Positions 7,138 to 40,200 of a DNA stretch of 64,000 nt are shown piece after piece. Positions within the stretch are counted from its first letter, which is position 1, and each line of letters starts with the position of its first letter. The notes beneath the pieces are model-generated. The model did no database searches and was not told where the DNA came from. It saw nothing but the letters and a program-made list of their open reading frames with translations. The stretch lies in NCBI GenBank assembly GCA_038321825.1, contig JBBQFK010000001.1, positions 1,197 to 65,196 on the forward strand. The letters are read 5' to 3'. The DNA is from Cyanophyceae cyanobacterium. GTDB taxonomy: Bacteria > Cyanobacteriota > Cyanobacteriia > Cyanobacteriales > JAAUUE01. Position numbers and translations under genes: made by a program.

Positions 7138-7871
7138 ATATCGGAATTATCTTGATCCATCTTTAAATCTTCAAGGGAAATATTTTCAGAAATTACTATT
7201 TTTATTATCTCTCTAACTAAATCATCTTGCCAAGAGTAAGTACATTGTTTGAAAAGTCGATCAACTGCTGCTCTAGCATACCTCTTAATCCATGCTTTAT
7301 TATGACTAATTAGCTCAGTTCTAGGATTTTCATTGATATGTTGATATTTATCCCAGCTTAATCGAGGACGTGGTGATCTATCCTGAAATAAATCAGTCTC
7401 TCCAAGTGTTATTCCTAAATAATATCGACCATATCTAAATTCAAATCTTGAACCATTTGATGAACGGCGACAAAATATAACCCACATATTTAAGTCTAAT
7501 TTGCTAATGGTAGAACCGGGGATTACTCTAGAACCTTTGCCCTTATTCTCTTTACAACTTTTAAGTTCAATCTTTCTTCTAAATTCATTGTTTTTATTAT
7601 CTATAAAAATTATTTGAATGTCAGGTACTTTAATTCCTGAGAGCTTAATATTTTGACAATCAGTATGATAGAAGGCTTCCTCGAACTTTTGACAAGCCAA
7701 ACTTGAAAACCCAGAATCAGTGTTCGCTTCACCATCTGTCCATTTTATTTGCGAAAGTTGGTCACTTGCTACTGCTAAAAGCTGAGTAGTTTTCTGTACC
7801 AACAAGGGTAGAAGTTGGAGATCAATAAATTCTTGACTATCCATAAATTTCATAACCAGAATATGAGCCAC
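7134..7871 (-). CDS. Putative cognate type II restriction endonuclease (PD-(D/E)xK candidate)
   Basis: Convergent with the m5C methylase, with stop codons overlapping inside AATTAA. Shares the same AT-rich composition. Candidate catalytic motif VPD-x17-ELK. No family recognised by eye. GTG start at 7871, or ATG six codons later. Confidence 0.5.
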   Translation of the reverse strand: MAHILVMKFMDSQEFIDLQLLPLLVQKTTQLLAVASDQLSQIKWTDGEANTDSGFSSLACQKFEEAFYHTDCQNIKLSGIKVPDIQIIFIDNKNNEFRRKIELKSCKENKGKGSRVIPGSTISKLDLNMWVIFCRRSSNGSRFEFRYGRYYLGITLGETDLFQDRSPRPRLSWDKYQHINENPRTELISHNKAWIKRYARAAVDRLFKQCTYSWQDDLVREIIKIVISENISLEDLKMDQDNSDI

Positions 7872-7887
7872 CCGCCCTAGTAAGTTT

Positions 7888-9234
7888 CTAAAGTTGCTTA
7901 AGAATATCTCCTAGGGTACTCACTAACTGGTCAATGTGGGATTTCTCGATAATTAGGGGCGGTGACAAGGCGATAATATCCCCCGTAGTTCTAATTAAAA
8001 TTCCGGCTTCGTAGGCTCGGAGAAAACACTCAAAAGCTCTCGCCGTAGGTTTGCCGGGGATGGGTTCCAGTTCAATGCCTGCAATTAAACCCAGATTGCG
8101 GATATCAATCACGGCGGGTAACCCCTTGAGAGAATGAACCGCTTCTTGCCAGTAGGGAGCCAAACTGCCAGCCCTAGCAAACAGATTTTCTCGATCGTAG
8201 ATATCTAAAGTTGCCAGCGCCGCCGCACAAGCTACCGGATGCCCAGAATAGGTATAACCATGAAATAGCTCAATGGCGTTCTCATCTCCCGCCATGAAAG
8301 CCTGATGGATATCTTCCCGCACCACCACCGCCCCCATGGGTATTGAGGCATTGGTAAGCCCCTTGGCAAGGCAAACAATATCAGGGATCACCCCAAAATA
8401 ATCCGTCGCAAACCCCGTACCCAAGCGCCCGAAACCGCTAATTACCTCATCAAAAATCAGTAAAATTCCGTACTTGTCGCAGATCTGCCGGAGCTTTTGT
8501 AAATAGCCCACCGGAGGAAGTAACACCCCCGTGGATCCCGCCACTGGCTCGACGATGACCGCCGCAATATTAGATGCATCATGGAGGGCGACAATGCTCT
8601 CTAGCTCCTCAGCCAAATGCGCTCCCCACTGGGGCTGTCCCTGGGAAAAGGCATTGTGTGACAAATTATGGGTATGGGGTAGATGATCCACACCACCTAG
8701 CAAACCCCCAAAAAACTTCCGCACTGTGGGGATGCCCCCTACGGACATACCACCAAAACCTACCCCGTGGTAGCCCCGTTCCCTGCCAATTAACTTTTGC
8801 CGAGTGCCATTTCCCTTAACTCGATGGTAAGCAAGGGCAATTTTTAGGGCAGAATCCACTGCTTCGGAGCCAGAATTTGCAAAGAAGACATGGTTTAAGT
8901 CTCCGGGAAACATCTTCGCTAACCTAGTAGCGGTCTCGAAGGCGATCGGGTGTCCCATCTGAAAAGCAGGAGCATAATCTAGTTGACTCATCTGAGTAGC
9001 TACTGCTTGGACAATTTCTTGCCGACCATGACCAGCATTGACGCACCATAAACCTGCTGTCCCGTCTAGTACCTGTCGTCCATCGTCGGTGGTGTAGTAC
9101 ATTCCTTGGGCAGCGACCATTAGCCGGGGTTTCGCCTTAAATTGCCGATTTGCGGTGAAAGGCATCCAAAAGGCTTCGAGGTCTGGGGGAATATTCGCAG
9201 GATTAGCAGTGGGGTCAAACATAGATGATGACAA
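7888..9234 (-). CDS. Class-III PLP-dependent aminotransferase (omega-amino acid:pyruvate aminotransferase-like)
   Basis: AGLWCVNAGHGRQEI, ANSGSEAVDSALK, LLIFDEVISGFGRLG and YTYSGHP are typical of aminotransferase class III. Confidence 0.85.
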   Translation of the reverse strand: MSSSMFDPTANPANIPPDLEAFWMPFTANRQFKAKPRLMVAAQGMYYTTDDGRQVLDGTAGLWCVNAGHGRQEIVQAVATQMSQLDYAPAFQMGHPIAFETATRLAKMFPGDLNHVFFANSGSEAVDSALKIALAYHRVKGNGTRQKLIGRERGYHGVGFGGMSVGGIPTVRKFFGGLLGGVDHLPHTHNLSHNAFSQGQPQWGAHLAEELESIVALHDASNIAAVIVEPVAGSTGVLLPPVGYLQKLRQICDKYGILLIFDEVISGFGRLGTGFATDYFGVIPDIVCLAKGLTNASIPMGAVVVREDIHQAFMAGDENAIELFHGYTYSGHPVACAAALATLDIYDRENLFARAGSLAPYWQEAVHSLKGLPAVIDIRNLGLIAGIELEPIPGKPTARAFECFLRAYEAGILIRTTGDIIALSPPLIIEKSHIDQLVSTLGDILKQL

Positions 9235-13170: not shown

Positions 13171-13404
13171 CTATATAGCAATGTTTGTAGTAAATTGTAG
13201 TGTCTTTGGTGGAGGGATTGTTTCACCTTCGGCTTGCCAAGATTCTAGGTACATTTCTATGACTTCTTCCCCATTTCTGATTGCTTCTGCACGAGTTTTG
13301 CCGTGGGTGCAGGGCATGATCACTCGATCACTAAATTCGGGAATTGTCACCAAAAAAAGTTGATCTTCTTCTGACCACTGGACAATCATGCTGTATTGAT
13401 TCAT
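13171..13404 (-). CDS. hicB: Type II antitoxin, HicB family
   Basis: 77 aa with a HicB-like N-terminal fold pattern (IVQWSEEDQLFLVTIPEF...GKTRAEAIRNGEEVIEMYLE). Overlaps hicA by 4 nt (ATGA). Confidence 0.75.
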   Translation of the reverse strand: MNQYSMIVQWSEEDQLFLVTIPEFSDRVIMPCTHGKTRAEAIRNGEEVIEMYLESWQAEGETIPPPKTLQFTTNIAI

Positions 13405-13625
13405 AACTCTCCGCCATCTCTCAATTTTTTCAATTCAATCAATAATTCTTGTAATTGTTTTTCTAAATATCTAGGTACATCAGCGCCATCTTTACCGGGG
13501 ATTGTCAAAGTCTTACCTAGCAAATCATGTCGCCAGCGATCGTGGCTGCCTTTACCACGTTTAGGGAGATGAATAAAACCTTCACGCCTAATCTGGGCTT
13601 TTAGTTCTCTAATTTTCCTTGGCAT
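13401..13625 (-). CDS. hicA: Type II toxin, HicA family (YcfA-like mRNA interferase)
   Basis: 74 aa: MPRKIRELKAQIRREGF...GKGSHDRWRH...LTIPGKDGADV. Toxin-first order with a 4-nt overlap to hicB. Confidence 0.75.
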   Translation of the reverse strand: MPRKIRELKAQIRREGFIHLPKRGKGSHDRWRHDLLGKTLTIPGKDGADVPRYLEKQLQELLIELKKLRDGGEL

Positions 13626-13652: not shown

Positions 13653-14747
13653 TTATAGCATCGCTTCTTTTATCTCTTGGAGAAGCTGCTGGGTGAGCGG
13701 GTGGGAAGAGAGGGAGGCGGAGCTATTGTTGGCTAGGGCTTGTTGCAATAGATAGCGGAAATTTCCCCAAGTTGTTTGAGTATCGGGATGATTTTCTCCT
13801 AGACTTTTCGTCCAAATCTCCAAAGTCCGCAAGTACAGAAGTTCGGCATCACTGTAGCGTCCCATAGCTCGGTAAAGTTCTGCCAAATTGTTGAGGCTTT
13901 GGGCAGTATCGGGATGGTCTTTCCCTAGCTGGGTTTCTTTGATCTGGAGCGATCGCTTGTACAAAGATTCCGCTTCGCTGTAGTGTCCCATAGCATAGTA
14001 AAGTGCAGCCAAATTGTTGAGGCTGTTGGCGGTGTCGGGATGGTCTGCCCCTAGCTGAGTTTCTTTGATCTGGAGCGATCGCTTGTACAAAGGTTCCGCT
14101 TCGCTGTAGCGTCCCATAACATAGTAAAGTGCCGCCAAATTGTTCAGACTTAGAGCAGTGTGGGGATGGTCTGCCCCTAGCTGAGTTTCCCTAATCTGAA
14201 GCAATTCCTCATACAAAGGTTCGGCTTCGCTGTAGCGTTCCATAGCATAGTAAAATCCTGCCAAATTGTTGAGGCTTAGGACAGTATGGGGATGGTCTGC
14301 CCCTAGTTGGGTTTCCCTGATCTGGAGTGCTCGTCCATACAAAGATCCCGCATTGCTGTATCGTCCCATAGCTTTGTAAAAATACGCCAAATTGTTGAGA
14401 CTGGTGGCGGTGTCGAGATGATCTTCCCCTAGGATTTTGTCTACAGAGCTTAAACACCTCTCACGAAGTTTTAGAGCTAGAGCGTAGAACCCTTGTCCCT
14501 GATAGATTCTGGCAACTCCTTCAAATGCCCATCCCAAATTGAAGTCTTCGCCGGGGTTAGGGATATCTTCAATCATTTCACTGCTTAGTAGTTCCAGATG
14601 GGGAATCGCTGGAGCTAACCTTGCAATCAATTCTTGGGTAGGTGATTGGGGTATCTGTTTGGCAACTACCAGCATTACCTTTACAAAAGCCTGCTTTAGT
14701 TGATTTGCTTCAGTTTCCTGCTTAACCTTAACTAACGTCTGTGACAT
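13653..14747 (-). CDS. TPR protein (kinesin-light-chain-type 42-aa repeats, about 6 units), short paralog of 14975-16690
   Basis: The first ~100 aa are nearly identical to the 571-aa TPR protein. Repeat unit: ALSLNNLAxLYxxMGRYSEAEPLYxRSLQIxETQLGxDHPxT. Confidence 0.8.
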   Translation of the reverse strand: MSQTLVKVKQETEANQLKQAFVKVMLVVAKQIPQSPTQELIARLAPAIPHLELLSSEMIEDIPNPGEDFNLGWAFEGVARIYQGQGFYALALKLRERCLSSVDKILGEDHLDTATSLNNLAYFYKAMGRYSNAGSLYGRALQIRETQLGADHPHTVLSLNNLAGFYYAMERYSEAEPLYEELLQIRETQLGADHPHTALSLNNLAALYYVMGRYSEAEPLYKRSLQIKETQLGADHPDTANSLNNLAALYYAMGHYSEAESLYKRSLQIKETQLGKDHPDTAQSLNNLAELYRAMGRYSDAELLYLRTLEIWTKSLGENHPDTQTTWGNFRYLLQQALANNSSASLSSHPLTQQLLQEIKEAML

Positions 14748-14787
14748 ATTCCTCTCTCTCTAACTCTTCTCTAACAAGCTCTTGAAT

Positions 14788-14967
14788 CTAATTTGGGTTT
14801 TTGGGGCTGATTTGCTCTGAGAGGGCTGGGTGTTGAAAAATATGAGGGCTGCTGTTGATCCGAACTAACTTGAAGCCAAAGCTTTCAACTACACTCACTA
14901 GGTCATTAAAGGCAAAATTATTACTGTTATTGAAGAGCCTTTGAAATAATTTCTGTCGTTTAGTCAT
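14788..14967 (-). pseudogene. Degenerate/truncated HicA-like toxin ORF (59 codons, below the ORF-track cutoff)
   Basis: Hand translation: MTKRQKLFQRLFNNSNNFAFNDLVSVVESFGFKLVRINSSPHIFQHPALSEQISPKNPN*. It resembles the HicA pattern (GF..V...GSHxxFxHP) with the Gly replaced. A TAG stop cuts an otherwise continuing frame (IQELVREELERE). Confidence 0.35.
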
Positions 14968-14974
14968 ATTTTAA

Positions 14975-16690
14975 TCATTCTCTCAACTCTTGGAGAAGCT
15001 GCTGGGTGAGGGTATGGGGGGAGAGGGAGTCGGTGCTGCCGTTGGCTATGGCTTGTTGGAGGAGATCGCGGAAGTTGCCCCAAGCTGTTTGGGTATAGGG
15101 ATGATTTTCTCCTAAACTTTTTGTGTAAATCTCTAAGGTTCTCAAATACAAAGGTTCGGCATCACCGTAGCATCCCATGGATTTGTAAAGTAATGCCAAA
15201 TTGTTGAGGCTGGTGGCGGTGTCTGGATGATCTAATCCTAGTTGGGTTTCCCTGATCTGGAGTGATCTCCTATACAAAGGTTCCGCATCGCTGTGGCTTC
15301 CCATGGATCGGTAAAGTTCTGCTAAGTTGTTCAAGCTGGTGGCAGTGAGAGGATGGTCTGCCCCTAGTTGAGATTTCCTGATCTGGAGTGCTCTCTCATA
15401 TAAAGGTTCAGCATCGCTGTAGCGTCCCATGACTCGATAAAGTTCCGCCAAATTATTCAGGCTGGTGGCGGTGTGTGGATGGTCTGCCCCCAGTTGGGTT
15501 TCCCTGATCTGTAACGATTGCTCAAACAAGGGTTCGGCATCGCTGTAACGTACCATTGCTTTGTAAAGGGCTGCTAAATTATTCATGCTGATGGATGTGT
15601 GTGGATGGTCTGCCCCTAGCTGGATTTCCCTGATTTGCAGTGAGCGCCTATACAAAGGTTCGGCATCGCTGTAGCGTCCCATAGCATAATAAAGTGCCGC
15701 CAAATTGTTCAGGCTGGTGGCGGTGTGTGGATGGTCTGCCCCTAGCCGGATCTCCATGATCTGGAGCGACCTATAAAACAAAGGTTCAACATCGCTGTAG
15801 CGTCCCATGGCATAGTAAAGTTCTGCCAAATTCTTCAGGCTAGAGGCGGTGTGTGGATGATCAACTCCCAGTTCGGTTTCCCTTATGTAGAGCGCGCGCT
15901 GATGCAAAGGTTCGGCATCGCTGTAGCGTCCCATAGATTCGTAAAGTCCCGCCAAATTGTTCAAGCTGGAGGCGGTGTCGGGATGGTCTGCTCCCAGTTG
16001 GGTTTCTCTGATCTGGAGCGATCGCTCAAACAAGGGTTCGGCATCGCTGTAGCGTCCCATAGCACAGTAAAGTCCCGCCAAATTGTTCAGGCTGGAGGCG
16101 GTGTCTGGATGGTTAGCACCCAGTTGGGTTTCACATATCTGGAGCGATCGCTGATGCAAAGGTTCGGCATCGCTGTAGCGTCCCATAGATTCGTAAAGTC
16201 CCGCCAAATTGTTCAAGCTTTGTGCGGTGTCGGGATGGTCAATACCCAGTTGGGTTTCCCTGATGTGGAGTGATCGTCCATGCAAAGGTTCTGCATCGCC
16301 ATAGCGTCCCATGACTCGATAAAGTTCCGCCAAATTGTTGAGACTGGTGGCAGTGGATGGATGGTCTGACCCTAGAATTTTTTCTGAGGAGCTTAAGCCT
16401 CTCTCACTAGGTTCTAGAGCTAGGGTGTAGAATCCTTGTCCCTCATAGAATCTAGCGATTCCTGTAAATGCCCATCCCAGATTGAAATCTTCTCCGGGGT
16501 TGGGTATATCCTCGATCATTTCTCGGCTGAGGAGTTCCAGATGGGGAATCGCCGGGGCTACACTAGCGATCAAATCTTGAGTAGGAGTTTCAGGTATCTG
16601 TTTAGCAACTGCGAGCATCACCTTCACAAAAGCTCGCTTCAATTGATCCGCTTCAGTTTCCTGCTTAACTTTAACTAACGTCTGTGACAT
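14975..16690 (-). CDS. TPR sensor-like protein (about 11 kinesin-light-chain-type repeats) paired with the NB-ARC NTPase
   Basis: 571 aa. Its start codon lies 20 nt inside the 3' end of the NB-ARC ORF. Regular 42-aa TPR units. Confidence 0.85.
   Translation of the reverse strand: MSQTLVKVKQETEADQLKRAFVKVMLAVAKQIPETPTQDLIASVAPAIPHLELLSREMIEDIPNPGEDFNLGWAFTGIARFYEGQGFYTLALEPSERGLSSSEKILGSDHPSTATSLNNLAELYRVMGRYGDAEPLHGRSLHIRETQLGIDHPDTAQSLNNLAGLYESMGRYSDAEPLHQRSLQICETQLGANHPDTASSLNNLAGLYCAMGRYSDAEPLFERSLQIRETQLGADHPDTASSLNNLAGLYESMGRYSDAEPLHQRALYIRETELGVDHPHTASSLKNLAELYYAMGRYSDVEPLFYRSLQIMEIRLGADHPHTATSLNNLAALYYAMGRYSDAEPLYRRSLQIREIQLGADHPHTSISMNNLAALYKAMVRYSDAEPLFEQSLQIRETQLGADHPHTATSLNNLAELYRVMGRYSDAEPLYERALQIRKSQLGADHPLTATSLNNLAELYRSMGSHSDAEPLYRRSLQIRETQLGLDHPDTATSLNNLALLYKSMGCYGDAEPLYLRTLEIYTKSLGENHPYTQTAWGNFRDLLQQAIANGSTDSLSPHTLTQQLLQELRE
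15100..16351. repeat. Array of about 10 tandem 126-bp coding repeats (TPR units); coordinates approximate
   Basis: Repeated nucleotide blocks such as ggttcggcatcgctgtagcgtcccat recur with a 126-bp period. They also create spurious antisense ORFs. Confidence 0.8.
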
Positions 16691-18044
16691 ATTCTTCCCC
16701 CTCCAATTTGCCTCTAAAAAACTCTCTAATCAAAGAATGTAAACGATAAGTACGCAGATCGATATTTTGAAACAGATGGAAACGAATTAGTTTTGCCCTA
16801 GCAGCTTCCAACTCCTCTAGCTCAAATTCCCCCCACTCTGGATTCATTTGATAATATTCCTCCTCAATCCGCTCCACCAACTCCCAAGGAATCGGCGCTG
16901 GGGCAAACAAACTCAACAACTTACCGAGATGTTGACTACCCTCCTCTAGCAACTCCCAACTCAGGTTAAAAGCCGCCTCCACCCCTAACTTTGCTGTAGA
17001 TGTTAGAGTTTCCTGCTCCACATCCAGAGATTTGTGTCGTAGAGCCTGACGAATTTTTGCCTTTTCTTGTAAGCGAAACAACAAAGTCGATAGGGACAAC
17101 TCCGGTAAGGCAACTAAGTAGCGCCCCACCAACTCCAAACCTAGGGGAAGATACTCCAACCAAGTACAGAGAGTTGCCGCTATTTCTGGCTCTTGATCGA
17201 TCCGCTCCTGCCCAATGATTGACCCTAACAATTCTAGGGATTGCTCCAAACTCAGCACCTCTAGAGGCAGCATCTGGATGGGTGAGCCAAACTTTAGCCG
17301 GGTAGTCATCAATACCTTAAAACGAGCATCCTTCGGTGGCAAGTATGGCTCTACGATGGGGTAGCTGACAACATCATCTAGAACCACCAACACATCACCC
17401 GATCGCCAATTTCGCCAACAAAATGCTACCTGATCGTCAACCTTATCCAACCCTTCAGGAACCTTCAGCCCCATCTGTGCTTGAGCAAAGCTAACAATTT
17501 GAGTTCCAATATTCTCACTTCTAGCGAATAGCCAACACAACCCGCCCTGATAAACCTCCTCATACTTTTCTGCATACTGGATCGCCAGTTCAGTTTTACC
17601 CACACCTCCCATGCCAGCGATCGCCGAAATCGCCACCAAAGTACCTTGCTGTAACTGATTATGAAGAGTTAGCAGGGCATCTTCTCGTCCCACAAACCTC
17701 GTCACCCCACTACGGGGAATGTTTTTAGGGATGCCCACAGGCTGGAGCGACTTCAAAAGTTCCCCCAAAGCCTCATGCAAAACATCCTGTAATACTTCCG
17801 GCTTCACATCATTCAGGTGAATCCCAATATTGGCAATTCCCCCCGTCACCCAGGTTTGAAACCCCTTCGCATTGCCTTGATTGATCTGGATCAAATTGCG
17901 ATCGCCTTGAATTGCTTCTCCTAACTGGGAGTTGACATCAATGCGTTGCTTCACCAGCCCCACCAACTTCGCCACATCCGCTTGGGGATTATCTTGGAGG
18001 ATTTCTGCCGTAAGCTGGCATAACTGCGTAATTAAATCTGTCAT
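16671..18044 (-). CDS. NB-ARC STAND NTPase (bacterial NLR core) with N-terminal Q/N/G-rich signalling motif
   Basis: Walker A GMGGVGKTELA, Walker B VLVVLDDV, RNBS-B-like KVLMTTR, GLPL-like YLPLGLELVGRYL. N-terminal residues 47-78: GDRNLIQINQGNAKGFQTWVTGGIANIGIHLN. Confidence 0.85.
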   Translation of the reverse strand: MTDLITQLCQLTAEILQDNPQADVAKLVGLVKQRIDVNSQLGEAIQGDRNLIQINQGNAKGFQTWVTGGIANIGIHLNDVKPEVLQDVLHEALGELLKSLQPVGIPKNIPRSGVTRFVGREDALLTLHNQLQQGTLVAISAIAGMGGVGKTELAIQYAEKYEEVYQGGLCWLFARSENIGTQIVSFAQAQMGLKVPEGLDKVDDQVAFCWRNWRSGDVLVVLDDVVSYPIVEPYLPPKDARFKVLMTTRLKFGSPIQMLPLEVLSLEQSLELLGSIIGQERIDQEPEIAATLCTWLEYLPLGLELVGRYLVALPELSLSTLLFRLQEKAKIRQALRHKSLDVEQETLTSTAKLGVEAAFNLSWELLEEGSQHLGKLLSLFAPAPIPWELVERIEEEYYQMNPEWGEFELEELEAARAKLIRFHLFQNIDLRTYRLHSLIREFFRGKLEGEEYVTDVS

Positions 18045-18070: not shown

Positions 18071-18508
18071 TTAAGAATTTGGTGTTTGCCCCTTCTGGAT
18101 ATGAATCTCTCCAATATAAGCAGTGCCGCCTTCAACCTTAGTCTGCCAGCCTCTAGCATTATCAGAAATATTCTGAGTCATACTACTATTGTCTTGAATT
18201 TTCCCTGCTTGGATAGTCTGAGCCAACAGCTTTAGTTCATGAGCAAAATCTGGATCATCATCCAACACTACATCAAGATTTTTTGTCACTGTTTCTAGCG
18301 CAATTTGATCGCCTTTTTCTACATTAACCAAAGCCTCATCTACCTTGGCAGATTTCCCCGATAACTTAGTTTTGATCTGCCTCCACAGTTCAGGAATTTT
18401 GGCGATCGCCTCAGTCGTGAATTTTTTAGCTAATTCCCCAGCACTTGATTCGATAAACTTTGATGCGGCTAATGTCACTAATACTCCAGCAGTCAGAGGA
18501 TCCGTCAT
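18071..18508 (-). CDS. Small Bell-like (putative membrane-targeting/cell-death) protein with C-terminal amyloid-signalling-like motif
   Basis: 145 aa. Hydrophobic/amphipathic N-terminus MTDPLTAGVLVTLAASKFIESSAGELAKKF. C-terminal NARGWQTKVEGGTAYIGEIHI matches the NB-ARC N-terminal motif. Lies 26 bp upstream of the NB-ARC gene. Confidence 0.55.
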   Translation of the reverse strand: MTDPLTAGVLVTLAASKFIESSAGELAKKFTTEAIAKIPELWRQIKTKLSGKSAKVDEALVNVEKGDQIALETVTKNLDVVLDDDPDFAHELKLLAQTIQAGKIQDNSSMTQNISDNARGWQTKVEGGTAYIGEIHIQKGQTPNS

Positions 18509-18753: not shown

Positions 18754-19203
18754 TTACATCCCCGTGGAACCGAACCCGCCCTCACCTCGGATAGAGCTAC
18801 TCAAGTCTTCGGCAACTTCGGTAAACTCCATTCTTGCGATCGCCGCCGTCACCAGTTGAGCAATCTTTTGCCCCTTCTCGATTACGTAGGATTCAGAACC
18901 TAGATTAATCAGAATTACTTTGATTTCCCCACGATAACCAGCATCGATCGTGCCGGGAGTATTCAATACAGTGATGCCATGCTTAAGAGCTAAACCACTT
19001 TTGGGACGGACTTGGATTTCAAAACCGGGGGGAATTTCTACAGATATTCCAGTTGCTATGGCTTTTCTTTGCAAAGGCTCCAAGGTGCAGGTTTCTAAGG
19101 AATAAATATCTGCCCCAGCATCCCCGACATGGGCATAGTTGGGGATTATTGCTTCGGGAGTTAAGCGTTTAATTTTTACAATAGGTGGTTTATTTATGGT
19201 CAC
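18754..19203 (-). CDS. dut: dUTP diphosphatase
   Basis: GDAGADIYS, KSGLALKHGI, GTIDAGYRGEI and C-terminal GGFGSTG. Confidence 0.93.
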   Translation of the reverse strand: MTINKPPIVKIKRLTPEAIIPNYAHVGDAGADIYSLETCTLEPLQRKAIATGISVEIPPGFEIQVRPKSGLALKHGITVLNTPGTIDAGYRGEIKVILINLGSESYVIEKGQKIAQLVTAAIARMEFTEVAEDLSSSIRGEGGFGSTGM

Positions 19204-19343
19204 TCTTTTCTTTGTCCGTTGGTTTTGCGATCGTCTTTTATTCTTTCACAACAACCAAGCGAAATTTGAAGGTAGCATAAAATTGTGTCAGGAAGACTAT
19301 AATTATCTGCATAGCTTGCGAGTCCCTTCCAAATTTAGGAGAG

Positions 19344-19955
19344 TTGATGAATGAGGTTTATACTACTCAGCAGTTGATTGAAGTCCTTCGGCGGGAGAGG
19401 TTGGCGTGTGTGAAGGGAGAGAGGTTGAATTTGGCAGTGGGGTATTCGGGGTATCAGGTGATCGATCGATTTGTTGATCCCCAAGCAATCCAAAAATTTA
19501 CCGCCTACCAAGATTTTAAGGCAACTATTCATCGTTATCAGCAGACTCATCAAGTATCGGGGATTTTGTGGCACAGTTTGACGATCGAGCATCATACCCT
19601 AGATTATCCAGCAGTTCATGAAGATTTAATTACCCTGCCCACTGACCTGCAAATTCTCCAGAGAGCCAAGTCTGGGGTGGTGGAATTTTGGCATCGGGCA
19701 ACGGCAGGGATGGATTTTTATCTGAGTGTTTGTCATGGCAAAGATTATCAGCAAATTAACCCCAATAGTTTGGTGGAGATGATTAACCACAGTCAGTGGG
19801 CAACGATCTGGAAGTGGGAAAATAGTCAATTTAAGGAAATCATTCTCCAGTTGGGACTATCCGCCATCGAGCTGGTCGATCGATCCCCCGAAAATCTGCA
19901 TTTAGCTACGGAAGATATCCACGCCGTCAACCCCGGCGGTAAGCCCATTGGGTAG
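19344..19955 (+). CDS. Hypothetical protein
   Basis: 203-aa ORF with no recognised motif. Start uncertain because of tandem Met codons. Confidence 0.45.
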   Translation: MMNEVYTTQQLIEVLRRERLACVKGERLNLAVGYSGYQVIDRFVDPQAIQKFTAYQDFKATIHRYQQTHQVSGILWHSLTIEHHTLDYPAVHEDLITLPTDLQILQRAKSGVVEFWHRATAGMDFYLSVCHGKDYQQINPNSLVEMINHSQWATIWKWENSQFKEIILQLGLSAIELVDRSPENLHLATEDIHAVNPGGKPIG

Positions 19956-20013
19956 TCCCAGAATTGCTAGAGTTTGGAACCGATTGAGGATGGCAATAGA
20001 ATTACCAAAGTTC

Positions 20014-20883
20014 CTAAAGCTTTCTGAGAGCTAGGGCTAAACCTTGGCAGACCCCTGTGAGAAAATCTAAATCTAGGGTATCAAGGCGATCGCTCTCCTT
20101 GTGGTAGTGGGGATTTCGCATAAAAGCCGTATCTGTCACCATCACTGCCGGATAACCCGCATCCCAAAAAGGTGCATGATCACTAAGGCGAGTGGCCGGA
20201 ACCAACTGCCCCCGATTGGGAATTGGCAACCACTCACAGGGAGTCCCACTGCGACGGATTTCACCCCCCATTTTCATGAGATCGAGGATCAAAGAAAAAT
20301 TACCAATCAGGGCAATAAAATCTCCAGTATTGGGATAAAAACGCTCTAATCCGGCGGGATAGGTTTGGGAGTTGGGGGTGCGATCGCAGTATCCCAGCAT
20401 TTCTAGGGACAACATGATCCGTACCTGTCGCTCTTGGGCTTTGAGGGTTTCCACATAGGCAGCACTACCCAATAGTCCATACTCTTCTAGATCAAAAGCA
20501 ATCAACTGCACCGGATACGCCAAGGGCTGGGCAGCAATAATTCTCGCTAGTTCTAGCAACACTGCCACCCCTGTCCCATTGTCATCGGCTGCGGGGGAGT
20601 TGGGTACACCGTCATAGTGAGCGCCGATAATAATCAAGGGCTGCGAGGGATCAATTTCGAGATTACTGTTAGCTGGAGTAGCGGCGGGTAAATTGAGGAT
20701 CAGGTTTTTATGAACTTTCCCAGAAACAATAAACTCATGAATCGTTATCTCACCCCATAGGGATAACTGCTGCCGGATGTAGGTTTGGACATAAAAATGC
20801 CCCACACTTGCTAGGTAAGGATGCCGCTCTCTAACAATTTCTTGGAGATGGTTGAGTAAATTATCCCGGAGATTTTCTGTCAT
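20014..20883 (-). CDS. M28-family metallopeptidase (aminopeptidase-like)
   Basis: IIGAHYDGVPNSPAADDNGTGVAVLLELAR and FDLEEYGLLGS metal-ligand motifs. Confidence 0.8.
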   Translation of the reverse strand: MTENLRDNLLNHLQEIVRERHPYLASVGHFYVQTYIRQQLSLWGEITIHEFIVSGKVHKNLILNLPAATPANSNLEIDPSQPLIIIGAHYDGVPNSPAADDNGTGVAVLLELARIIAAQPLAYPVQLIAFDLEEYGLLGSAAYVETLKAQERQVRIMLSLEMLGYCDRTPNSQTYPAGLERFYPNTGDFIALIGNFSLILDLMKMGGEIRRSGTPCEWLPIPNRGQLVPATRLSDHAPFWDAGYPAVMVTDTAFMRNPHYHKESDRLDTLDLDFLTGVCQGLALALRKL

Positions 20884-20968
20884 AAACTCTAGTGAGTGAC
20901 TTTATCTACTACCTACATTTTACCTGAACTTGAATGTTATTATAGGATATAAATCATTTTCTTGAGCC

Positions 20969-22627
20969 ATGACTAATCAACTTTTCTACGGTGATAATCT
21001 AGAGGTTTTACGCAGACATATTCGAGATGAAACTGTTGATCTCTGCTATATTGATCCGCCCTTCAATTCCAAGCGGAATTATAACCAAATTTATCTCAAC
21101 CAAGGGAAGGAAGATCAAGCTCAAGCTCAAGCCTTTATAGATACATGGACATGGGATGATTTGGCTAACCAAGGCTTAAGAGAAATTCAAGAAAACTATC
21201 AAGGACGTTTTACTACTCAAAGTATTGATCTGATTTCTGGTTTAACTAAAGTTCTTGGCAAAGGGTCTTTACTTGCTTATCTAATTAGCATGACTTTACG
21301 CATAGCTGAAATTCACCGAGTTCTCAAACCTACAGGTAGTTTCTATCTCCACTGCGATCCGACAGCTTCCCATTACTTAAAACTTGTCTTAGATGCAATT
21401 TTTTGTTCCCAAGGTGGAGATTTTAAAAGTGAGATTAGTTGGAAGCGTTCTAGCGCACACAATGATACTAAGCAAGGAAGTAAACAGTATGGAAATATTA
21501 GAGATATTATTTTCTTTTATACCAAATCAAATAAGTGGAATTGGAATTCTCAATATACTGAATATAGTAAGCAATATATTGATAAAAACTATCGTTATGT
21601 TGAAAAAGGAACTGGCAGACGTTATCGTCTAGATAACTTAACAGCAGCTAAGCCTGGTGGTGATGTTTCTTATGATTTTTATGGGACTAAACCATACAAA
21701 GGAAGATTTTGGGCTTATTCCCGTGAAAATATGGAAAAATTTAAAGATGAAGGACGTTTATATTTTCCTGCTAATGGAGGAACACCAAGTTATATTAGAT
21801 ATCTAGATGAAATGGCTGGAGTTTCTCTTCAAAATAACTGGGATGATATTATGCCATTGTCATCAGGAGCAAAAGAAAGACTAGGATATCCTACGCAAAA
21901 ACCAGAAGCTCTTTTGGAAAGAATTCTTGGAGTAAGTAGCAATGAAGGGGATGTAATTCTTGATGCTTATTGTGGTTGTGGAACGACGGTAGCAGTTGCT
22001 CAGAGATTAAATAGACAATGGATTGGAATTGATATTACTTACCAGAGTATTGGTTTGATTTTGAGGAGATTAGAAGAGGCTTTTGGTACAGAAATTGTAG
22101 ACAATGTTGTTTTGAATGGAATTCCTAGAGATATGGAATCGGCGAAGGCTTTGGCACTGAAGAAAGACGATCGCACTCGGAAAGAATTTGAAAAATGGGC
22201 AGTACTTACCTATTCTAATAACCGTGCGGTGATTAATCAAAAGAAAGGTGCTGATAAAGGCGTAGATGGGACTGCTTATTTTACAGGCGATCAAGATGAA
22301 CCAGAAAAAATCATCTTACAGGTTAAATCAGGAAAGGTAGAGTCTGGTGATATTCAAAAATTACAAGGTGCAATGACCCGTGAGGGTGCAGTATTAGGTA
22401 TTTTTATTACTCTCAATAAGCCCACAAAAAATATGAACCAAGAGGCAAAGGAAGCAGGAATTTATCAAAGTCGATTTATGAGTCAGCCTGTAGACAAAAT
22501 TCGGATTGTCACTATTCAAGAAATTTTAGAAGAACAAAAACGCCTTGATATTCGCCTGAGCTTAGAAGTCTTAAAATCTGCTGAAAGACAATCAACGTCT
22601 ACCCAGTTACCCATTAACTTAGAATAG
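20969..22627 (+). CDS. Beta-class N6-adenine/N4-cytosine DNA methyltransferase fused to a C-terminal Mrr-like PD-(D/E)xK domain
   Basis: Motif IV DLCYIDPPFNS is near the N-terminus. YPTQKPEALLERIL and AdoMet motif DVILDAYCGCGTTVAVAQ come later. C-terminal EFEKWAV...GADKGVDGTAYF...IILQVKSGK...GIFITL resembles the Mrr catalytic core (D...QxK). Confidence 0.8.
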   Translation: MTNQLFYGDNLEVLRRHIRDETVDLCYIDPPFNSKRNYNQIYLNQGKEDQAQAQAFIDTWTWDDLANQGLREIQENYQGRFTTQSIDLISGLTKVLGKGSLLAYLISMTLRIAEIHRVLKPTGSFYLHCDPTASHYLKLVLDAIFCSQGGDFKSEISWKRSSAHNDTKQGSKQYGNIRDIIFFYTKSNKWNWNSQYTEYSKQYIDKNYRYVEKGTGRRYRLDNLTAAKPGGDVSYDFYGTKPYKGRFWAYSRENMEKFKDEGRLYFPANGGTPSYIRYLDEMAGVSLQNNWDDIMPLSSGAKERLGYPTQKPEALLERILGVSSNEGDVILDAYCGCGTTVAVAQRLNRQWIGIDITYQSIGLILRRLEEAFGTEIVDNVVLNGIPRDMESAKALALKKDDRTRKEFEKWAVLTYSNNRAVINQKKGADKGVDGTAYFTGDQDEPEKIILQVKSGKVESGDIQKLQGAMTREGAVLGIFITLNKPTKNMNQEAKEAGIYQSRFMSQPVDKIRIVTIQEILEEQKRLDIRLSLEVLKSAERQSTSTQLPINLE

Positions 22628-22637
22628 GAAAAAGCCT

Positions 22638-23099
22638 ATGAATTATACAAATCAGTTGGTTTCTTTGTATGAACAGGATTTGAATCTTTGGTTGGAAACT
22701 ACAATTTCTGATCTTAAAGCTGGGGATTTTCAGCGTCTTGATATAGAAAACTTAGTAGAGGAATTGGCAAGTTTGGCTGGTAGAGATAGACGAGAACTGC
22801 GGATTCGGTTAGCAACTTTATTAGAACATTTACTAAAACGATGCTATGTCAACAGTGAATATGATTATGCCGAATGGGAAGAAACGATCGATCGAACTCG
22901 GTTTGAAATTGTAGGTATTCTCGATCAATCTCCCAGCCTCAAGAACTATGCTAATAGTCCAGAATTATTCTCTCAAGCCTTTAATTTTGCCTTGGGGCAG
23001 ATGAAAAAAAATCAAAATTATCAATCTATCGCATTTCCCGATCGATGGGAGTTTAATAGTGATATTGAATCTTTGTTAAATATTAATTTCTGGGAATAA
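22638..23099 (+). CDS. DUF29-family protein
   Basis: LYEQDLNLWLETTISDLKAGDFQRLDIENLVEELASLAGRDRRELRIRLATLLEHLLK is a typical DUF29 opening. Starts 11 bp after the methyltransferase stop. Confidence 0.8.
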   Translation: MNYTNQLVSLYEQDLNLWLETTISDLKAGDFQRLDIENLVEELASLAGRDRRELRIRLATLLEHLLKRCYVNSEYDYAEWEETIDRTRFEIVGILDQSPSLKNYANSPELFSQAFNFALGQMKKNQNYQSIAFPDRWEFNSDIESLLNINFWE

Positions 23100-23159
23100 T
23101 TTCTGGGAATAATTAGCTCTAGCTAAATCAGTAGATCGGGTGCAACTCTAAGGTGGTTT

Positions 23160-24701
23160 ATGAAAAATAGAATTTTATTTTGCGGGCTGTTTTTTAGCGT
23201 GTTTATCTTTAGTATTTTTTTTAGTAATTCTAGAGGCTTGGCGATCGATCATCTTGCTAATTCTTTTATTAATCCCGAAGCTCGATCGATCCCTACTTTG
23301 TTGGCAGGGGTTCTCCCTGAAGATGAAGACATCAATCAAGAAGCAGAAACTCAGATGGCAGATCAGATGATGGCTAACTATGAAAACTGGGACAATCGGG
23401 CTAGAGAACAGGTGGCAACCAATCTTCAAAGCGGCGACTGGGATCAGGCTCTGAACCAACTGGAGAATACTTGGGAGCAGGATCTGCAAACGTTTTATGG
23501 GGAAAATGCCCCAAGGCGGGAGGTCAATCTCCAACAATTGCAGCAAACTTTAGCTGGTCTAGATCAAGAAACGGGACAAAAAAGTGCGATCGTCTATCTA
23601 GCTTCCCGCCCCAGTAGCCTCGAAGTTCTCTTGGTAACTGCCGATGCACCCCCGGCTCGCCATAGTATTGTCGAAGCCAAACGAGATTTATTATTCAAAA
23701 CTGCGGGACAATTGATCCTCCGCATTGATAACAAAGAACGGACAACGGGGAGGTCTTATCTAACTCCGGCAAGGCAACTCTATCGCTGGATTATAAATCC
23801 CTTAATTCCCCAACTCGATCGACAGGAGATTAATAACCTGATTTTTGTCACTGACTATGGGTTGCGATCGATCCCCATGGCAGTCCTTCACGATGGTCAG
23901 CAATTCCTGATCGAAAAATACAGCATTGCCAACAGCCCCAGCTTTAGCATGATCAATACTCGCTTCAAAAGCCTGCAAGAATCGCCAATCTTAGCCATGG
24001 GGGCCTCCACTTTTATTAATCAAGAGCCATTACCTGCGGTTCCGGTGGAGTTAAGAATGATTACCCAAGACCGGGGCAGGGGAGAGTCTTTTTTGAACCA
24101 ACCCTTTACCGTTAATAATCTGATCAGCCAACGTCAACGCCAGCCCTTTGAAATTGTGCATCTGGCAACCCACGCTGGTTTTAATGATGGCAGTCCCGAT
24201 CGCTCCTATATTCAATTTTTTGATAGTCAACTCCTCCTTAATGACCTAGGGAAATTAGGCTTAAATAATCCTCCCGTTAGTTTGCTGGTAATTAGTGCTT
24301 GTCAAAGTGCGATCGGGAATCGGAATGCCGAACTGGGCTTTGGGGGTTTGGCTCTCAAAAGTGGTGTAGATACGGTGGTGGCAAGTCTTTGGTATGTTAG
24401 TGATGAAGGAACTCTTGCCCTCATGAGTGAATTTTATCGCTATCTCCGTACTGCCCCCATCAAAGCCCAAGCTCTCCGACAGGCACAGATCGCAATGTTG
24501 CAGGGAAATATCCGCATTGAAAATGGGCAGCTAATTACTCAAACTAATTTAGTCAACGATATCGCCAATAATCCAATTAATAATCCAGCGAATAATCAAA
24601 CTAGTATTACCCTGCCCCCAGAGTTGAGGAACTTGAATATCCAGAATCTTACCCATCCCTACTACTGGTCATCTTTTGTGATGCTGGGTAGCCCTTGGTA
24701 A
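23160..24701 (+). CDS. Signal-anchored CHAT-domain (caspase-fold) protease
   Basis: N-terminal hydrophobic MKNRILFCGLFFSVFIFSIFF. Catalytic dyad context IVHLATHAGF and LLVISACQSA. Confidence 0.8.
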   Translation: MKNRILFCGLFFSVFIFSIFFSNSRGLAIDHLANSFINPEARSIPTLLAGVLPEDEDINQEAETQMADQMMANYENWDNRAREQVATNLQSGDWDQALNQLENTWEQDLQTFYGENAPRREVNLQQLQQTLAGLDQETGQKSAIVYLASRPSSLEVLLVTADAPPARHSIVEAKRDLLFKTAGQLILRIDNKERTTGRSYLTPARQLYRWIINPLIPQLDRQEINNLIFVTDYGLRSIPMAVLHDGQQFLIEKYSIANSPSFSMINTRFKSLQESPILAMGASTFINQEPLPAVPVELRMITQDRGRGESFLNQPFTVNNLISQRQRQPFEIVHLATHAGFNDGSPDRSYIQFFDSQLLLNDLGKLGLNNPPVSLLVISACQSAIGNRNAELGFGGLALKSGVDTVVASLWYVSDEGTLALMSEFYRYLRTAPIKAQALRQAQIAMLQGNIRIENGQLITQTNLVNDIANNPINNPANNQTSITLPPELRNLNIQNLTHPYYWSSFVMLGSPW

Positions 24702-37230: not shown

Positions 37231-40200
37231 CTAACTCTTATCTCGATCGCACACCTCCGGCGACCCATTAGGATTGTGATTTTTATAATCTGCTAACCAA
37301 GTACAGCCTTGTCTAATTAAACTCTCCAAATTAAGATTCCATACAACTACTCGCCCATCTTGATCTGCCGATACTAGAAAATTACCATCTTCGCTAAAAC
37401 TTGCTTCAAAAATAGCTTCACTATGGCTGGTACTAAGAGTAGTGATCAGGTTGCCATCCAAGCGCCAAAACTTCAGGGTTTTATCTTCGCTAACCGAGGC
37501 GATCGACTTCCCATCGGTTGCAAAACCCACCCAGTTCACCGAGCCATTATGTCCCCGGAGAGTGGTGATTAAAGTTCCATCCATACTCCACAGGCGAATT
37601 GTCCCCTTATTCGTCGCCGCCGCCAAAAATTTACCATCGGCAGATATTGCCAAGTAATTCACTGCCCCGTTATTTTCTGTCAAAGTTCGCAAAAGTTGAC
37701 CATCCAAGCTCCAAATCTTCACCGTCTGGTCATCGCTGCCCGTGGCGATCAACTTTCCCCCCGGTGCAAAAGCCACTGTATTTACATTATCTTCATGCCC
37801 CACCAAAGTATGCAGAAGTTCTCCCGCCGGATTCCAAATCTTGGCAGTTTTATCCCTACCAGCACTTGCCATCAGGCGATCGTCCAAGGAGAAAGCCACC
37901 CCATTTACCCCGCCCTCGTGAGCCTTAATCGTTTGCATCAAATCTCCCTTATCTGTCCACAGGCGCACCGTTTCGTCATCACTGCCACTGACTAAAAACT
38001 TGCCATTGTGGGAAAAAACTACACTGTTGATAGCTTCCGTATGCGCCTTTAATTCCTTCAGGAGATTTCCCCGCGTTGACCATAACCGGATCAGGTGATC
38101 TTGGCTCCCGGTGGCGATCGACTCTCCCCTAGGACTAACGCTAACTGCATTCACCGCCTCTGATTGGATAATCTTCTGGGTAAAATCATTCCGCCGCCAA
38201 AACTTCACCGTACTATCCCCACTACCACTAGCCAAAATCTGCCCATCAGGGCTAAAACCCACCGCCCGGACTAAATTCCCATGTCCCCGGAAGGTATCAA
38301 TTAATTTTCCTGCCAAATCCCAAACTTGCACCGTATTATCTGCATTACCCACCGCTAACATTCGGCTATCAGGGCTAAACGCCACACTCAAAACCCAATC
38401 TTGGCTGACTTGCCAATCCCGACTTGGAGCCTGATTCCACGGTTCATTTGGTGTAGCTCGCTGCCAGAGAAATATCCTCCCATTAGTGCCTGTAACTGCC
38501 AAAGCCTGATGATTGGGGGCAAATTTGACACTAGTAATCACCTTGTCTGTATCCTGCCCCGGAGCTTGCCACGACTGCTGCCGTTGAAATTCCCCCCTAG
38601 CATCCTGCTGCCAAAAAATCACTAAGCCATCCGCCCCTACGGAAACTAAGGTCTTGCCATCCGGGGCAAAATCTATCCCCAACACTCGATTACTATGTCC
38701 CTGCAAGGTACTAACTAACTGCCCTTGGAGATTCCAAATTTTAATAGTTTTATCCCAACTGCCACTGGCGATCACCTGCCCGTCTGGACTGAAAACTACA
38801 GAACTCACCGTCCCCTCGTGGGCGTTGGCAGAGCCTGCTTCAGTGGAGATTGTCCTAACTACTTTGCCTGTAGCGTAGTTCCATATCTGTACCTGTTTCC
38901 CTGTTCCCCCGGTGGCGATGAGTTGACTATTAGGAGAAAAACTAACACTATCCAGTTCTCCTCCTGCCCCGGCTAATTCCCGAAGTAACTGCCCTTGGGG
39001 ATTCCAGATTTTAATAGTTTGGTCTTTGCTAGCAGTGGCAAGGAGTTGACCATTGGGGGAGAAGGCTAAACCCATGACCCAATCTGTGTGTCCTTCGAGG
39101 CGATTACTTTCCCGGATTTGGTCGATCGTCTGTTGCAGGGTCGTCAGTACCCGGATATTCGTATCCACACTAGCACCCCAAAAACCAGTTAAAATTCGCC
39201 CCGCCTTCAGGCTTTCCACCAGAGCATCAAACTTCCGACTGGAGAGGATCAAACTTTCTGAAGAAGAGACGATCGCCCCAATTTGAGTATTGGTTTCCTT
39301 CAGGGATGCTTGGATGGCAAAAACCCCCGTCAACATAGCCATAGTTAAAAATCCCAAACCCCACAACCTTGCCCCAGTTAATCTTTGTTGGAGAATTTGA
39401 TTAAGTTTATTTTCACTATCTTGTTGTCCTAGTTTCGCTGTAGTCAATTCGGCAATCAAAGCTTTTTCTCGTAGGGCAAATTCTAGCCTTTCAATAGTTT
39501 CTTGATTACTAATTTGGCGTTGTTTATAATCTTCGATCTGAAGCTTCGTATTAACTTCTTCTCGCTGCCGAATAAACTCGACTAAATAGTCATGAACTAA
39601 CTGATAACGAGGAAAGGGAATTTCTGGTAAGAGAAATACTAAACCCGACTTTTCAAGGATTTCTAAAATTAGGTCTAAGGTTGGATGAAAGGCTCCTTGA
39701 TCTAATTCTAGATCGGCAATTAATTCGAGGCGAGTTTTCAGGGGACGGATATTATTTTCTGCTGTGAGGAAATATAAAACCTGCCAAGCCATCGCCGCAT
39801 TTTCTACCCCGCAATCTTGGACTACTTGTGCTAAAAATCTTTCTGCTAGACGTTGCTTTAATCCAGATTCATGATACTGCTCTAGGGTTGTAATATTTTC
39901 TGACTGGACTTGAGCGCCAACTAACTGGAGTTCAATGGGGCGAATTTCCTGATTTTTTCCGGCTAGTTCGGCAACTATTTCATTAATTAAATCTGGCTCT
40001 ATTTCAAAATCAGCCCGATGGGTGAGGGTAGTGACGACCGATCGAGCATCAGTAATTGAGAAGTTACCAAGGGAATAGCGAATTCTGCGATCGAGGATGT
40101 TATTATTAATGGGATCAAGTAATACCTGTTCACTATTTAGGAGATAATGTAAGCCATCTTCCCGCAGAGATAAGATTACCTTGACGTAGGAAATATTTAG

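Follow-up and report, generated by a model that had tools for sequence, protein, structure and literature searches.

Can the sensor of a bacterial NLR-type switch be encoded apart from the NTPase that it serves and, if it can, is such an arrangement the accident of one genome or a stable design? This question is raised by a stretch of DNA of 64,000 nucleotides (nt) from a Cyanophyceae cyanobacterium (contig JBBQFK010000001.1, positions 1,197 to 65,196; "the window" denotes this whole stretch), in which a gene for an NB-ARC protein without a repeat domain is followed by two genes for tetratricopeptide repeat (TPR) proteins, TPR1 and TPR2. Comparison with related loci shows that a gene set of three parts is conserved and that the sensor within it is a cistron of its own, multi-copy and exchangeable. 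All genes of the set lie on the minus strand and follow one another, in the order of transcription, as an open reading frame (ORF) of 145 amino acids (aa), the NB-ARC gene, TPR1, a truncated HicA-like ORF, TPR2 and a HicA/HicB pair. The features that carry the argument are as follows:

18071-18508, minus strand: effector candidate of 145 aa (Bell-like), with a predicted N-terminal hydrophobic helix, five-helix sheath and C-terminal beta motif (from the ORF, its homologues and an AlphaFold2 (AF2) model)
16671-18044, minus strand: NB-ARC (AP-ATPase/STAND) hub protein of 457 aa, without a repeat domain, ending in ...EGEEYVTDVS and a stop codon (from Pfam)
16697-16704, minus strand: Shine-Dalgarno (SD)-like GGAGGGGG, within the codons for Leu-Glu-Gly-Glu in the NB-ARC tail and 6 nt 5' of the TPR1 ATG (from the sequence)
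16671-16690, minus strand: 20-nt overlap, from the TPR1 ATG (16688-16690) to the NB-ARC stop (16671-16673), with TPR1 in the +1 frame
14975-16690, minus strand: TPR1, 571 aa, starting MSQTLVKVKQ, with a head (aa 1-105; 16376-16690), ten canonical 42-aa units (15110-16369) and a C-cap (from Pfam TPR_10/TPR_12 and Tandem Repeats Finder (TRF))
13653-14747, minus strand: TPR2, 364 aa, starting as TPR1 does, with a head (14433-14747), five canonical units (13797-14426) and a C-cap (from Pfam and unit analysis)

The 457-aa ORF is recognised by the Pfam NB-ARC profile (46.8 bits against a cutoff of 23.5; 3e-12) and weakly by DUF7779, with no TPR match. Its P-loop GMGGVGKT and its LVVLDDV are invariant in an alignment of 20 homologues (alignment A2), which identifies it as a STAND/AP-ATPase NTPase, and the closest solved sequence is the NB-ARC of AfsR (1e-15). 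In the NLR architecture of Dyrka et al., a nucleotide-binding oligomerisation domain (NOD) and superstructure-forming repeats stand in one polypeptide; the NB-ARC ORF departs from this architecture, as its repeats are found in separate ORFs. The original prediction, which had been made from this DNA alone, placed the NB-ARC stop 20 nt past the TPR1 ATG, and this is what the reading frames bear out.

The split between NB-ARC and TPR is genuine, old, clade-wide and under purifying selection. The loci examined comprised 78 genome and 80 metagenome loci (numbered L001 and so on below), plus one contig encoding an NB-ARC protein of 97.6 % identity; a metagenome scan with the single NB-ARC protein had given pattern matches among which no relative was confirmed, and it was redone with alignment A2. 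Among the 1564 homologues of the NB-ARC ORF, the top 100 or so consist of NB-ARC alone. Nearly all of these have 437-470 aa; their sources are Stigonema, Tychonema, Nostoc, Adonisia, Leptolyngbya, Dendronalium and Microcystis, as well as many metagenomes, and single-chain NB-ARC-TPR homologues start only at 56 % identity and below. At the C-terminus, the short proteins align on ...YRLHSLIREFFRSKLEGExDV and stop within a few residues of it. At 54 % identity or more to the window NB-ARC, 26 loci are split, 3 NB-ARC-only and 3 fused, whereas below 54 % there are 97 fused and 7 split loci. The comparison of fused with split homologues that had been proposed as a check was also made by grouping 137 distinct NB-ARC domains by UPGMA (unweighted pair group method with arithmetic mean) on Kimura-corrected distances, which is a clustering and not a rigorous phylogeny: the cluster that holds the window NB-ARC (n=32) contains 26 split, 2 NB-ARC-only, 3 fused and 1 long-tailed member, compared with 87 fused and 1 split in the sister cluster (n=98). 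The closest relatives, with NB-ARC identities of 98, 85, 79 and 76 %, are all split likewise; the closest named ones are Microcystis (NB-ARC 79 %), and Woronichinia and Pseudanabaena (effector 83 %). The ratio of non-synonymous to synonymous substitution rates (dN/dS) is 0.06-0.07 for NB-ARC and 0.12-0.17 for the heads, and both the NB-ARC and the TPR halves are under purifying selection.

How, then, is the second half translated? In the split clade, the TPR start codon sits where the NB-ARC tail encodes its conserved Asp-Val (GAT GTN; TAT GTC in the window), and the Leu-Glu-Gly-Glu codons just 5' of it spell GGAG/GAGG. The start is ATG in 24 and GTG in 4 of the 28 distinct split junctions, with TPR usually in the +1 frame, and an SD-like motif is present at 26 of these junctions, as against 9 of the 36 large ORFs of the window. 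The two ORFs overlap at 23 junctions, in nine cases by 14 nt, in seven by 20 nt and otherwise by 17, 23, 32 or 44 nt, and are separated by 4-101 nt at the other five. At most loci a stop codon just 12 nt 5' of the TPR ATG closes the +1 frame. In fused relatives, a shorter linker is read straight through (...REFFQYKLTGLEQAEELKRSLCRVMVAVAK...). The conserved starts, the gaps and the closed +1 frame argue for independent or coupled initiation of the TPR cistron and against programmed +1 frameshifting. The proposal that the TPR module is an independent cistron with its own SD-like element is thus upheld: start and motif are conserved, and arrays of one to four such cistrons recur.

Two other accounts of the split have to be weighed against this one. 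Single-chain relatives are the overall majority (91 of the 137 distinct sequences), and a one-base indel near the Asp-Val codons could switch a fused gene to a split one or back, L013 (60 % identity) being fused through exactly this segment; the split might therefore be an artefact or a recent pseudogenising frameshift of an ordinary single-chain NB-ARC-TPR gene, as the original prediction had allowed in its alternative of a frameshifted fusion. However, the identical 20-nt overlap is found in an independent metagenome contig (97.6 % aa identity) and in the loci at 85, 79 and 76 %, the split occurs clade-wide in many genera with its start codon conserved, and purifying selection acts on both halves (dN/dS 0.06-0.17). 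With the relatives down to 76 % all split, this account is rejected and retains next to no credence. A subtler possibility is that programmed +1 ribosomal frameshifting in the overlap yields a fused NB-ARC-TPR protein, so that, as far as the protein is concerned, the first TPR cistron at least would form a single gene with NB-ARC. The +1 offset of almost all loci, the G-rich SD-like element just upstream, as in prfB, and a 0-frame stop within 14-44 nt all agree with such a shift. Yet the junctions do not look like that of prfB: no slippery or hungry-codon shift site is conserved at the 0-frame stop, where the preceding codons vary by locus (AGT TAA, GCT TGA, ACT TAA, CGT TAA), and the +1 frame, mostly closed 12 nt 5' of the ATG, leaves only a small span in which to shift. 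Moreover, the five gapped junctions do not overlap at all, one of them lying in frame 0 with stops in between, the TPR cistrons two to four cannot be fused by any shift, and the conserved element is the start codon itself, present as ATG or GTG in 28 of 28 junctions. Frameshifting is therefore very unlikely, and independent or coupled initiation is the reading followed below.

The number of TPR cistrons per hub points in the same direction. Behind the repeat-less NB-ARC gene stand one to four of them, depending on the locus: two in the window, in Microcystis-type loci (L001, L081-L084) and in L086, L087 and L092; three in Microcoleus L003 and in L004, one of those of L004 being without a recognisable head; and three to four in L085. 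In L091, three extra cistrons follow a fused gene. Each secondary cistron starts on its own within a spacer of 10-100 nt that holds no NB-ARC remnant, so that no translational trick can fuse it to the NTPase. In Adonisia turfae (L007 4707-6008), a head-bearing TPR gene stands 5' of NB-ARC, where the Bell-like gene would otherwise be, and its end overlaps the start of NB-ARC; a further TPR gene follows downstream. In Tychonema (L002 7313-9700), a chimeric gene begins at the usual junction as a fragment of a TPR head and runs on into a complete second NB-ARC-TPR protein of 795 aa, as if two NLR units had recombined.

Whole TPR cistrons have also been replaced by recombination between close relatives, with a breakpoint at the junction. 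The window and L079 share 97.6 % protein identity in NB-ARC and about 96 % DNA identity from the end of the upstream gene through NB-ARC to some 60 nt into the TPR ORF, beyond which the head retains 66-78 % and the repeats about 50 %; the synonymous rate (dS) is 0.175 for NB-ARC and 1.46 for the head. L001 and L084 are 93 % identical in NB-ARC and 92 % in their second TPR protein (TPR-b), compared with 60 % in the first (TPR-a). Their DNA is about 95 % identical up to the junction (7374), 55-68 % over 7375-8770 and 88-100 % from 8771 through TPR-b, with dS at 0.26 for NB-ARC, 0.15 for TPR-b and saturated for the TPR-a head. In both replacements the left breakpoint is the conserved junction. 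Because the non-repetitive head is replaced along with the repeats, and because dS is high, recombinational replacement of the whole cistron is indicated, rather than slippage of units or positive selection on a few residues. The suggestion that this arrangement serves to diversify or swap the sensor of one NTPase is supported by these two independent replacements. The further suggestion was that the repeats expand and contract by recombination; what was seen is the replacement of whole cassettes, whereas a change of repeat number by slippage was not directly seen: in the relatives compared, no plain repeat-number variation between otherwise identical cassettes was observed.

Within the window, TPR1 and TPR2 are built alike. 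TRF finds a 126-bp period in 9.7 copies (TPR1) and 4.8 copies (TPR2), and anchoring on S-L-N-N-L-A gives 10 and 5 canonical units at an exact spacing of 42 aa, each array having in addition a degenerate N-terminal unit and a C-cap; the earlier count of about 11 versus about 6 units of a 126-bp repeat was fair. Tandem 42-aa units are likewise recognised by TPR_10, in 11 stretches of TPR1 (8e-138) and 5 of TPR2 (2e-70), which places both among the TPR_10/TPR_12 repeat proteins of KLC-like type. Mean unit-to-unit identity is 72 % in TPR1 and 69 % in TPR2 for protein, and 76 % and 75 % for DNA, with a few positions holding most of the variability. The two heads had been described as near-identical over about 100 aa, which fits their first 24 aa (22 of 24 identical) and is somewhat overstated for the 105 aa as a whole (81 %). 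The first 24 codons differ by 5 synonymous and 2 non-synonymous changes, and dN/dS between the two genes is 0.12 in the head and 0.30 in the C-cap.

Where did the second copy come from? The two junctions differ 5' of the ATG (GGGGAAGAAT in TPR1 versus GAGAGGAAT in TPR2): ungapped identity is 31/45 and then drops abruptly to 1/15, and none of 100000 shuffles was as good over 48 nt (0/100000). It had been claimed that the same junction sequence precedes TPR2; the two are similar, not identical, and the string quoted was the TPR2 version. Two features lie between the TPR genes:

14788-14967, minus strand: truncated HicA-like ORF of 59 aa between TPR1 and TPR2, a mark of rearrangement (Pfam HicA_toxin 6.6e-4, profile positions 2-29 of 58 only)
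14748-14792, minus strand: 45-nt remnant, the 3' end of a former NB-ARC gene (…ELEREEYVTDVS and a stop codon), directly 5' of and overlapping the TPR2 start (from alignment and frame translation)

The 45 nt before TPR2 thus encode an NB-ARC tail, and they are joined to a HicA gene that has lost its 3' part. Because this remnant precedes it, TPR2 is the surviving sensor of a second NB-ARC/TPR unit, whose NB-ARC gene was lost in a deletion that also truncated a HicA gene. The idea of a duplicated TPR module is correct in that there is a second head-bearing TPR gene, although this gene is not a simple duplicate. TPR2 keeps an intact ORF, its ATG and the GAGG motif, and no further NB-ARC gene or head is found within the 64-kb window. 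The HicA genes on the two sides of TPR2 differ, the upstream one being truncated and joined to the NB-ARC tail remnant and the downstream one intact. It should be noted that the exact TPR1 and TPR2 sequences are absent from a collection of 15 billion proteins in which the NB-ARC and 145-aa proteins of the same contig are present; the source annotation of the TPR genes may use other starts or flag them differently.

What the head is can be seen from its relatives. Used alone as a query against 1.84 billion representatives, the head matched 386 proteins, in which it is mostly internal, at about residue 350-700, and N-terminal in about 30 of the best 150; in single-chain relatives, it is the segment that normally follows the winged-helix region. 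Since most of the 386 matching proteins carry the head internally, it is, to judge by these matches, an NLR-specific module retained by the free-standing TPR proteins.

At the other end of the gene set, the 145-aa protein and the hub appear to be linked by a motif that occurs in both:

18098-18181, minus strand: C-terminal motif of the effector (…NARGWQTKVEGGTAYIGEIHI), common to the NB-ARC N-terminus; putative BASS-type amyloid signalling motif (from BLASTP)
17814-17894, minus strand: N-terminal motif of the NB-ARC protein (…NAKGFQTWVTGGIANIGIHL), the counterpart of the effector C-terminus (from BLASTP)

BLASTP aligns the two proteins at E=2e-6, with 41 % identity over 64 aa, and the last 30 residues of the effector match the NB-ARC N-terminus (NARGWQTKVEGGTAYIG versus NAKGFQTWVTGGIANIG), which makes a shared motif of at least 15 aa. 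This motif is nearly invariant within both families; in the 20 NB-ARC homologues, F62, Q63, T64, V66, A71, G74 and H76 do not vary. The 145-aa protein has 758 homologues, all of them cyanobacterial; nearly all are unannotated and close to 145 aa in length, and no Pfam domain was consistent among them. Its AF2 model (predicted local distance difference test score, pLDDT, 72) has a hydrophobic helix at residues 7-19, five more helices to residue 101, and low-confidence strands at 111-136 over the motif; the model of the NB-ARC protein likewise has a low-confidence beta strand at residues 62-73. The Bell domain, as published, measures about 100 aa; its helices form a cup around a hydrophobic helix at the N-terminus, where a region conserved as 'MEPIS' is also described (bioRxiv 10.1101/2020.01.06.895854; 10.1101/2024.11.07.622273), and a BASS motif is common to the effector and the N-terminus of the adjacent collinear NLR (bioRxiv 10.1101/2020.01.06.895854); Bab/Agp is an experimentally tested abortive-infection pair of this kind (bioRxiv 10.1101/2024.11.07.622273). 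The window effector starts MTDPLTAG and its relatives MEPLTAGAIA, and it is separated from the collinear NB-ARC gene on the same strand by 26 nt, well inside the 5 kb within which Bell/BASS-NLR pairs are taken as adjacent. The pairing of motifs fits the published Bell/BASS amyloid-signalling scheme, and the low-confidence beta strands lead to the prediction that the motif forms amyloid and templates its partner. The 145-aa protein is called Bell-like only, its resemblance to the Bell family being one of predicted structure.

The effector varies between loci. In L002 (5100-5993) and L003 (5103-5993), the gene upstream of the split NB-ARC encodes a PNP_UDP_1 phosphorylase of 296-297 aa that ends in ...GGT(A/N)Y(V/M)GEIHIH, a motif as in the 145-aa protein of the window. 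Other NB-ARC members of the clade have EAD4 or EAD10 in place of the N-terminal motif. With this variety of effectors and N-termini (PNP_UDP_1, EAD4, EAD10) and with the exchange of TPR cistrons, the hub is modular at both ends. In Nostoc paludosum, Spirulina and Dendronalium (L008 5689-7314, L009 135-1658 and L010 5716-7248), the NB-ARC gene has only 331-346 aa and is without the N-terminal motif region, and tblastn runs through an in-frame stop between an upstream Bell-like ORF (MEPLTAGAIA...) and the NB-ARC ORF; these short genes may be a further split or a decayed adaptor.

Taken together, the genes probably constitute a disaggregated three-part NLR, with a death effector, an NB-ARC hub and trans-acting TPR sensors in one cell-death or immunity operon. 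Translation of TPR1 would be coupled to that of NB-ARC on the same mRNA, by termination-reinitiation or by the internal SD element. The TPR proteins would dock on the NB-ARC protein through their heads and keep the hub off until a ligand binds. Ligand binding would then release the hub, which would oligomerise, and its clustered N-terminal motifs would template the C-terminal motif of the effector into an amyloid-like fold, whereupon the N-terminal helix of the effector might attack the membrane, leading to abortive infection or altruistic death. Alternative TPR paralogues, such as TPR1 and TPR2, would let one hub answer several ligands.

Several points weigh against so complete a scheme. The SD-like motif is encoded by the conserved Leu-Glu-Gly-Glu, so that its conservation is confounded with that of the protein. 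The effector has no Pfam or PADLOC match, a Foldseek search with it against the PDB gave nothing significant (best E 0.76), and the shared motif could not be assigned to a BASS family. PADLOC likewise returned nothing for the NB-ARC protein and matched the sensors to a generic TPR model only. The AF2 model of the NB-ARC ORF (20 sequences; mean pLDDT 59.6) is confident for the nucleotide-binding domain only and falls below 50 from residue 332, and such a poor C-terminal third is uninformative as to a docking surface or the need for a partner. Binding of the TPR proteins to NB-ARC in trans is presumed, and the ligand, the phage target and expression are all putative. Lastly, TPR2 arrived by way of a deletion event and could be a relic no longer in use.

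The last point can be sharpened into a rival explanation, namely that only TPR1 functions here and that TPR2 is the inert leftover of a deleted second NLR unit, in which case there would be no arrangement of two sensors and one NTPase. The 45-nt remnant joined to a truncated HicA ORF indeed speaks of deletion and rearrangement rather than of a designed tandem array, and the hub is the sole NB-ARC gene of the window. On the other hand, the 364-aa ORF is intact, with ATG and GAGG motif kept, a dN/dS of 0.12-0.30 relative to TPR1 and an almost identical start of 24 aa, and arrays of two to four TPR cistrons per NB-ARC gene are common in relatives and stably inherited, as TPR-b of L001 and L084 illustrates (92 %); an inert TPR2 is hence unlikely, if still to be reckoned with. 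A different objection concerns what the TPR proteins do. Instead of sensing the hub's ligand, they might be inhibitors or chaperones acting in trans, decoys or guards, or proteins that work independently of NB-ARC, whose trigger would then be a different one. The NB-ARC ORF looks like a complete NOD, from the P-loop to DUF7779, ligand binding by the TPR proteins is putative, and repeat-less NB-ARC proteins regulated in trans are known: CED-4 is an oligomerisation module that has no repeat sensor of its own and is controlled by a separate Bcl-2 protein, CED-9. What makes a role other than sensing quite improbable is that the head is homologous to the segment that links NOD and TPR in single-chain relatives, which speaks for the same structural role, that the TPR cassettes turn over fast beside a conserved hub, as expected of a specificity determinant, and that the variable positions of the units are concentrated at few sites.

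If the TPR proteins are the sensors of a three-part NLR, a broader proposal can be made, here only tentatively. The system may be a plug-and-play prokaryotic NLR, in which a hub wired by a short amyloid-type motif to a separate death effector works with interchangeable trans-acting TPR sensors that are arrayed behind it and exchanged between strains at a conserved junction, consisting of the NB-ARC stop, the TPR start and the first 20 or so codons. In such an NLR, sensor/helper NLR networks would have their bacterial counterpart, and there would be a natural system with which to re-target a STAND switch.

Known systems share parts of this arrangement. In Bell/BASS-NLR pairs, a small helical protein with a hydrophobic N-terminal helix also lies upstream of and collinear with an NB-ARC gene, the motif is shared, cyanobacteria are the hosts and other effector types, here the PNP phosphorylase of L002 and L003, carry the motif as well; the published NLR partner, however, has its TPR or WD repeats in the chain, whereas here they form separate and often several cistrons. 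The single-chain NB-ARC-TPR STAND proteins (cyanobacterial AP-ATPases; Streptomyces AfsR, PDB 8k60/8jke) have a homologous NB-ARC core, head and 42-residue TPR_10/12 units, but in them NOD and sensor are covalently joined, at the short linker where the split genes have a stop and a new start (KLEGExDV-stop / M..VKQxTEAExLK) and which is followed here by extra sensor genes. Fungal NLRs with highly conserved internal repeats (HET-E/HET-D, NWD2/HET-S), and 42-residue TPR-like repeats of high internal identity, resemble the system in self-similar units with few variable positions, a sensor evolving faster than the NOD and a proposed output by amyloid-motif signalling to a pore-forming partner; the difference is that in fungi units are shuffled inside one gene, whereas here whole sensor cistrons, head included, are replaced between conserved flanks.

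More distant parallels are functional. In plant sensor-helper NLR pairs, several sensors feed one signalling hub, the sensors themselves being full NLRs. These pairs and CED-4/CED-9 have in common with the split genes an NB-ARC module under the control of a separate protein, in CED-4 a repeat-less one, but the sequence relation is that of the NB-ARC fold only, and CED-9 is not a detached repeat domain. The hsdS shufflons of Type I restriction-modification place alternative recombining specificity subunits beside a conserved enzymatic core. Here the likeness is one of function only: the proteins bear no relation to each other, neither inverted repeats nor a recombinase were found at the present locus, and exchange occurs between strains rather than as phase variation within one. 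The pairing of Bell/BASS with NLRs and the high self-similarity of NLR repeats are already published, and the texts searched put NTPase and repeats in one polypeptide; in a limited literature search, no published description of a conserved NB-ARC/TPR split with sensor arrays was found, nor was a split found mentioned in bioRxiv 10.1101/2020.01.06.895854. The system is best described as an NB-ARC STAND member that departs from the one-chain rule of NOD plus repeats and that would work as a Bell/BASS NLR does, its sensor acting in trans.

The usual view is that STAND/NLR switches rely on intramolecular autoinhibition by the repeat sensor, and a widespread family in which the sensor is separate and multi-copy makes it testable how a NOD is held off and released in trans, whether one hub reads several ligands and whether the exchange of a cassette can re-program specificity. 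Both replacements described above indicate selection on the sensor gene as an exchangeable unit, which may bear on the arms race between phages and such bloom-forming hosts as Microcystis. For annotation, the consequence is more immediate: NB-ARC-only and TPR-only genes of this kind are now labelled as hypothetical or unrelated proteins.

Promoter and terminator scans gave counts at or below shuffle expectation and thus no usable signal. Directly 3' of TPR2 lies a neighbour only:

13171-13625, minus strand: intact toxin-antitoxin pair of HicA (13401-13625) and HicB (13171-13404) (from Pfam)

Its HicA matches HicA_toxin at 3.2e-9 and its HicB matches HicB_lk_antitox at 1.9e-5, slightly below the cutoff; the HicA and HicB ORFs have 4 nt in common. 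Another STAND-like pair of genes lies at 37231-43568 on the minus strand, where a 443-aa NTPase (42237-43568; weak AAA_16, KAP and nSTAND5 matches) overlaps by 22 nt a 1675-aa protein (37231-42258) that contains about 12 WD40 repeats and a P-loop of its own (LHGESGVGKSS). The pair was weighed as a further instance of the NB-ARC/TPR split and set aside, as it belongs to a different NTPase family (KAP/nSTAND-like with WD40). With HicAB and this pair, the stretch at 18754-24701 beside the gene set resembles a conflict island: it comprises a dUTPase (18754-19203), an N6_N4 methylase fused to Mrr_cat/NA-iREase1 (20969-22627), a DUF29 protein (22638-23099) and a 513-aa CHAT-domain protein (CHAT protease; 23160-24701).

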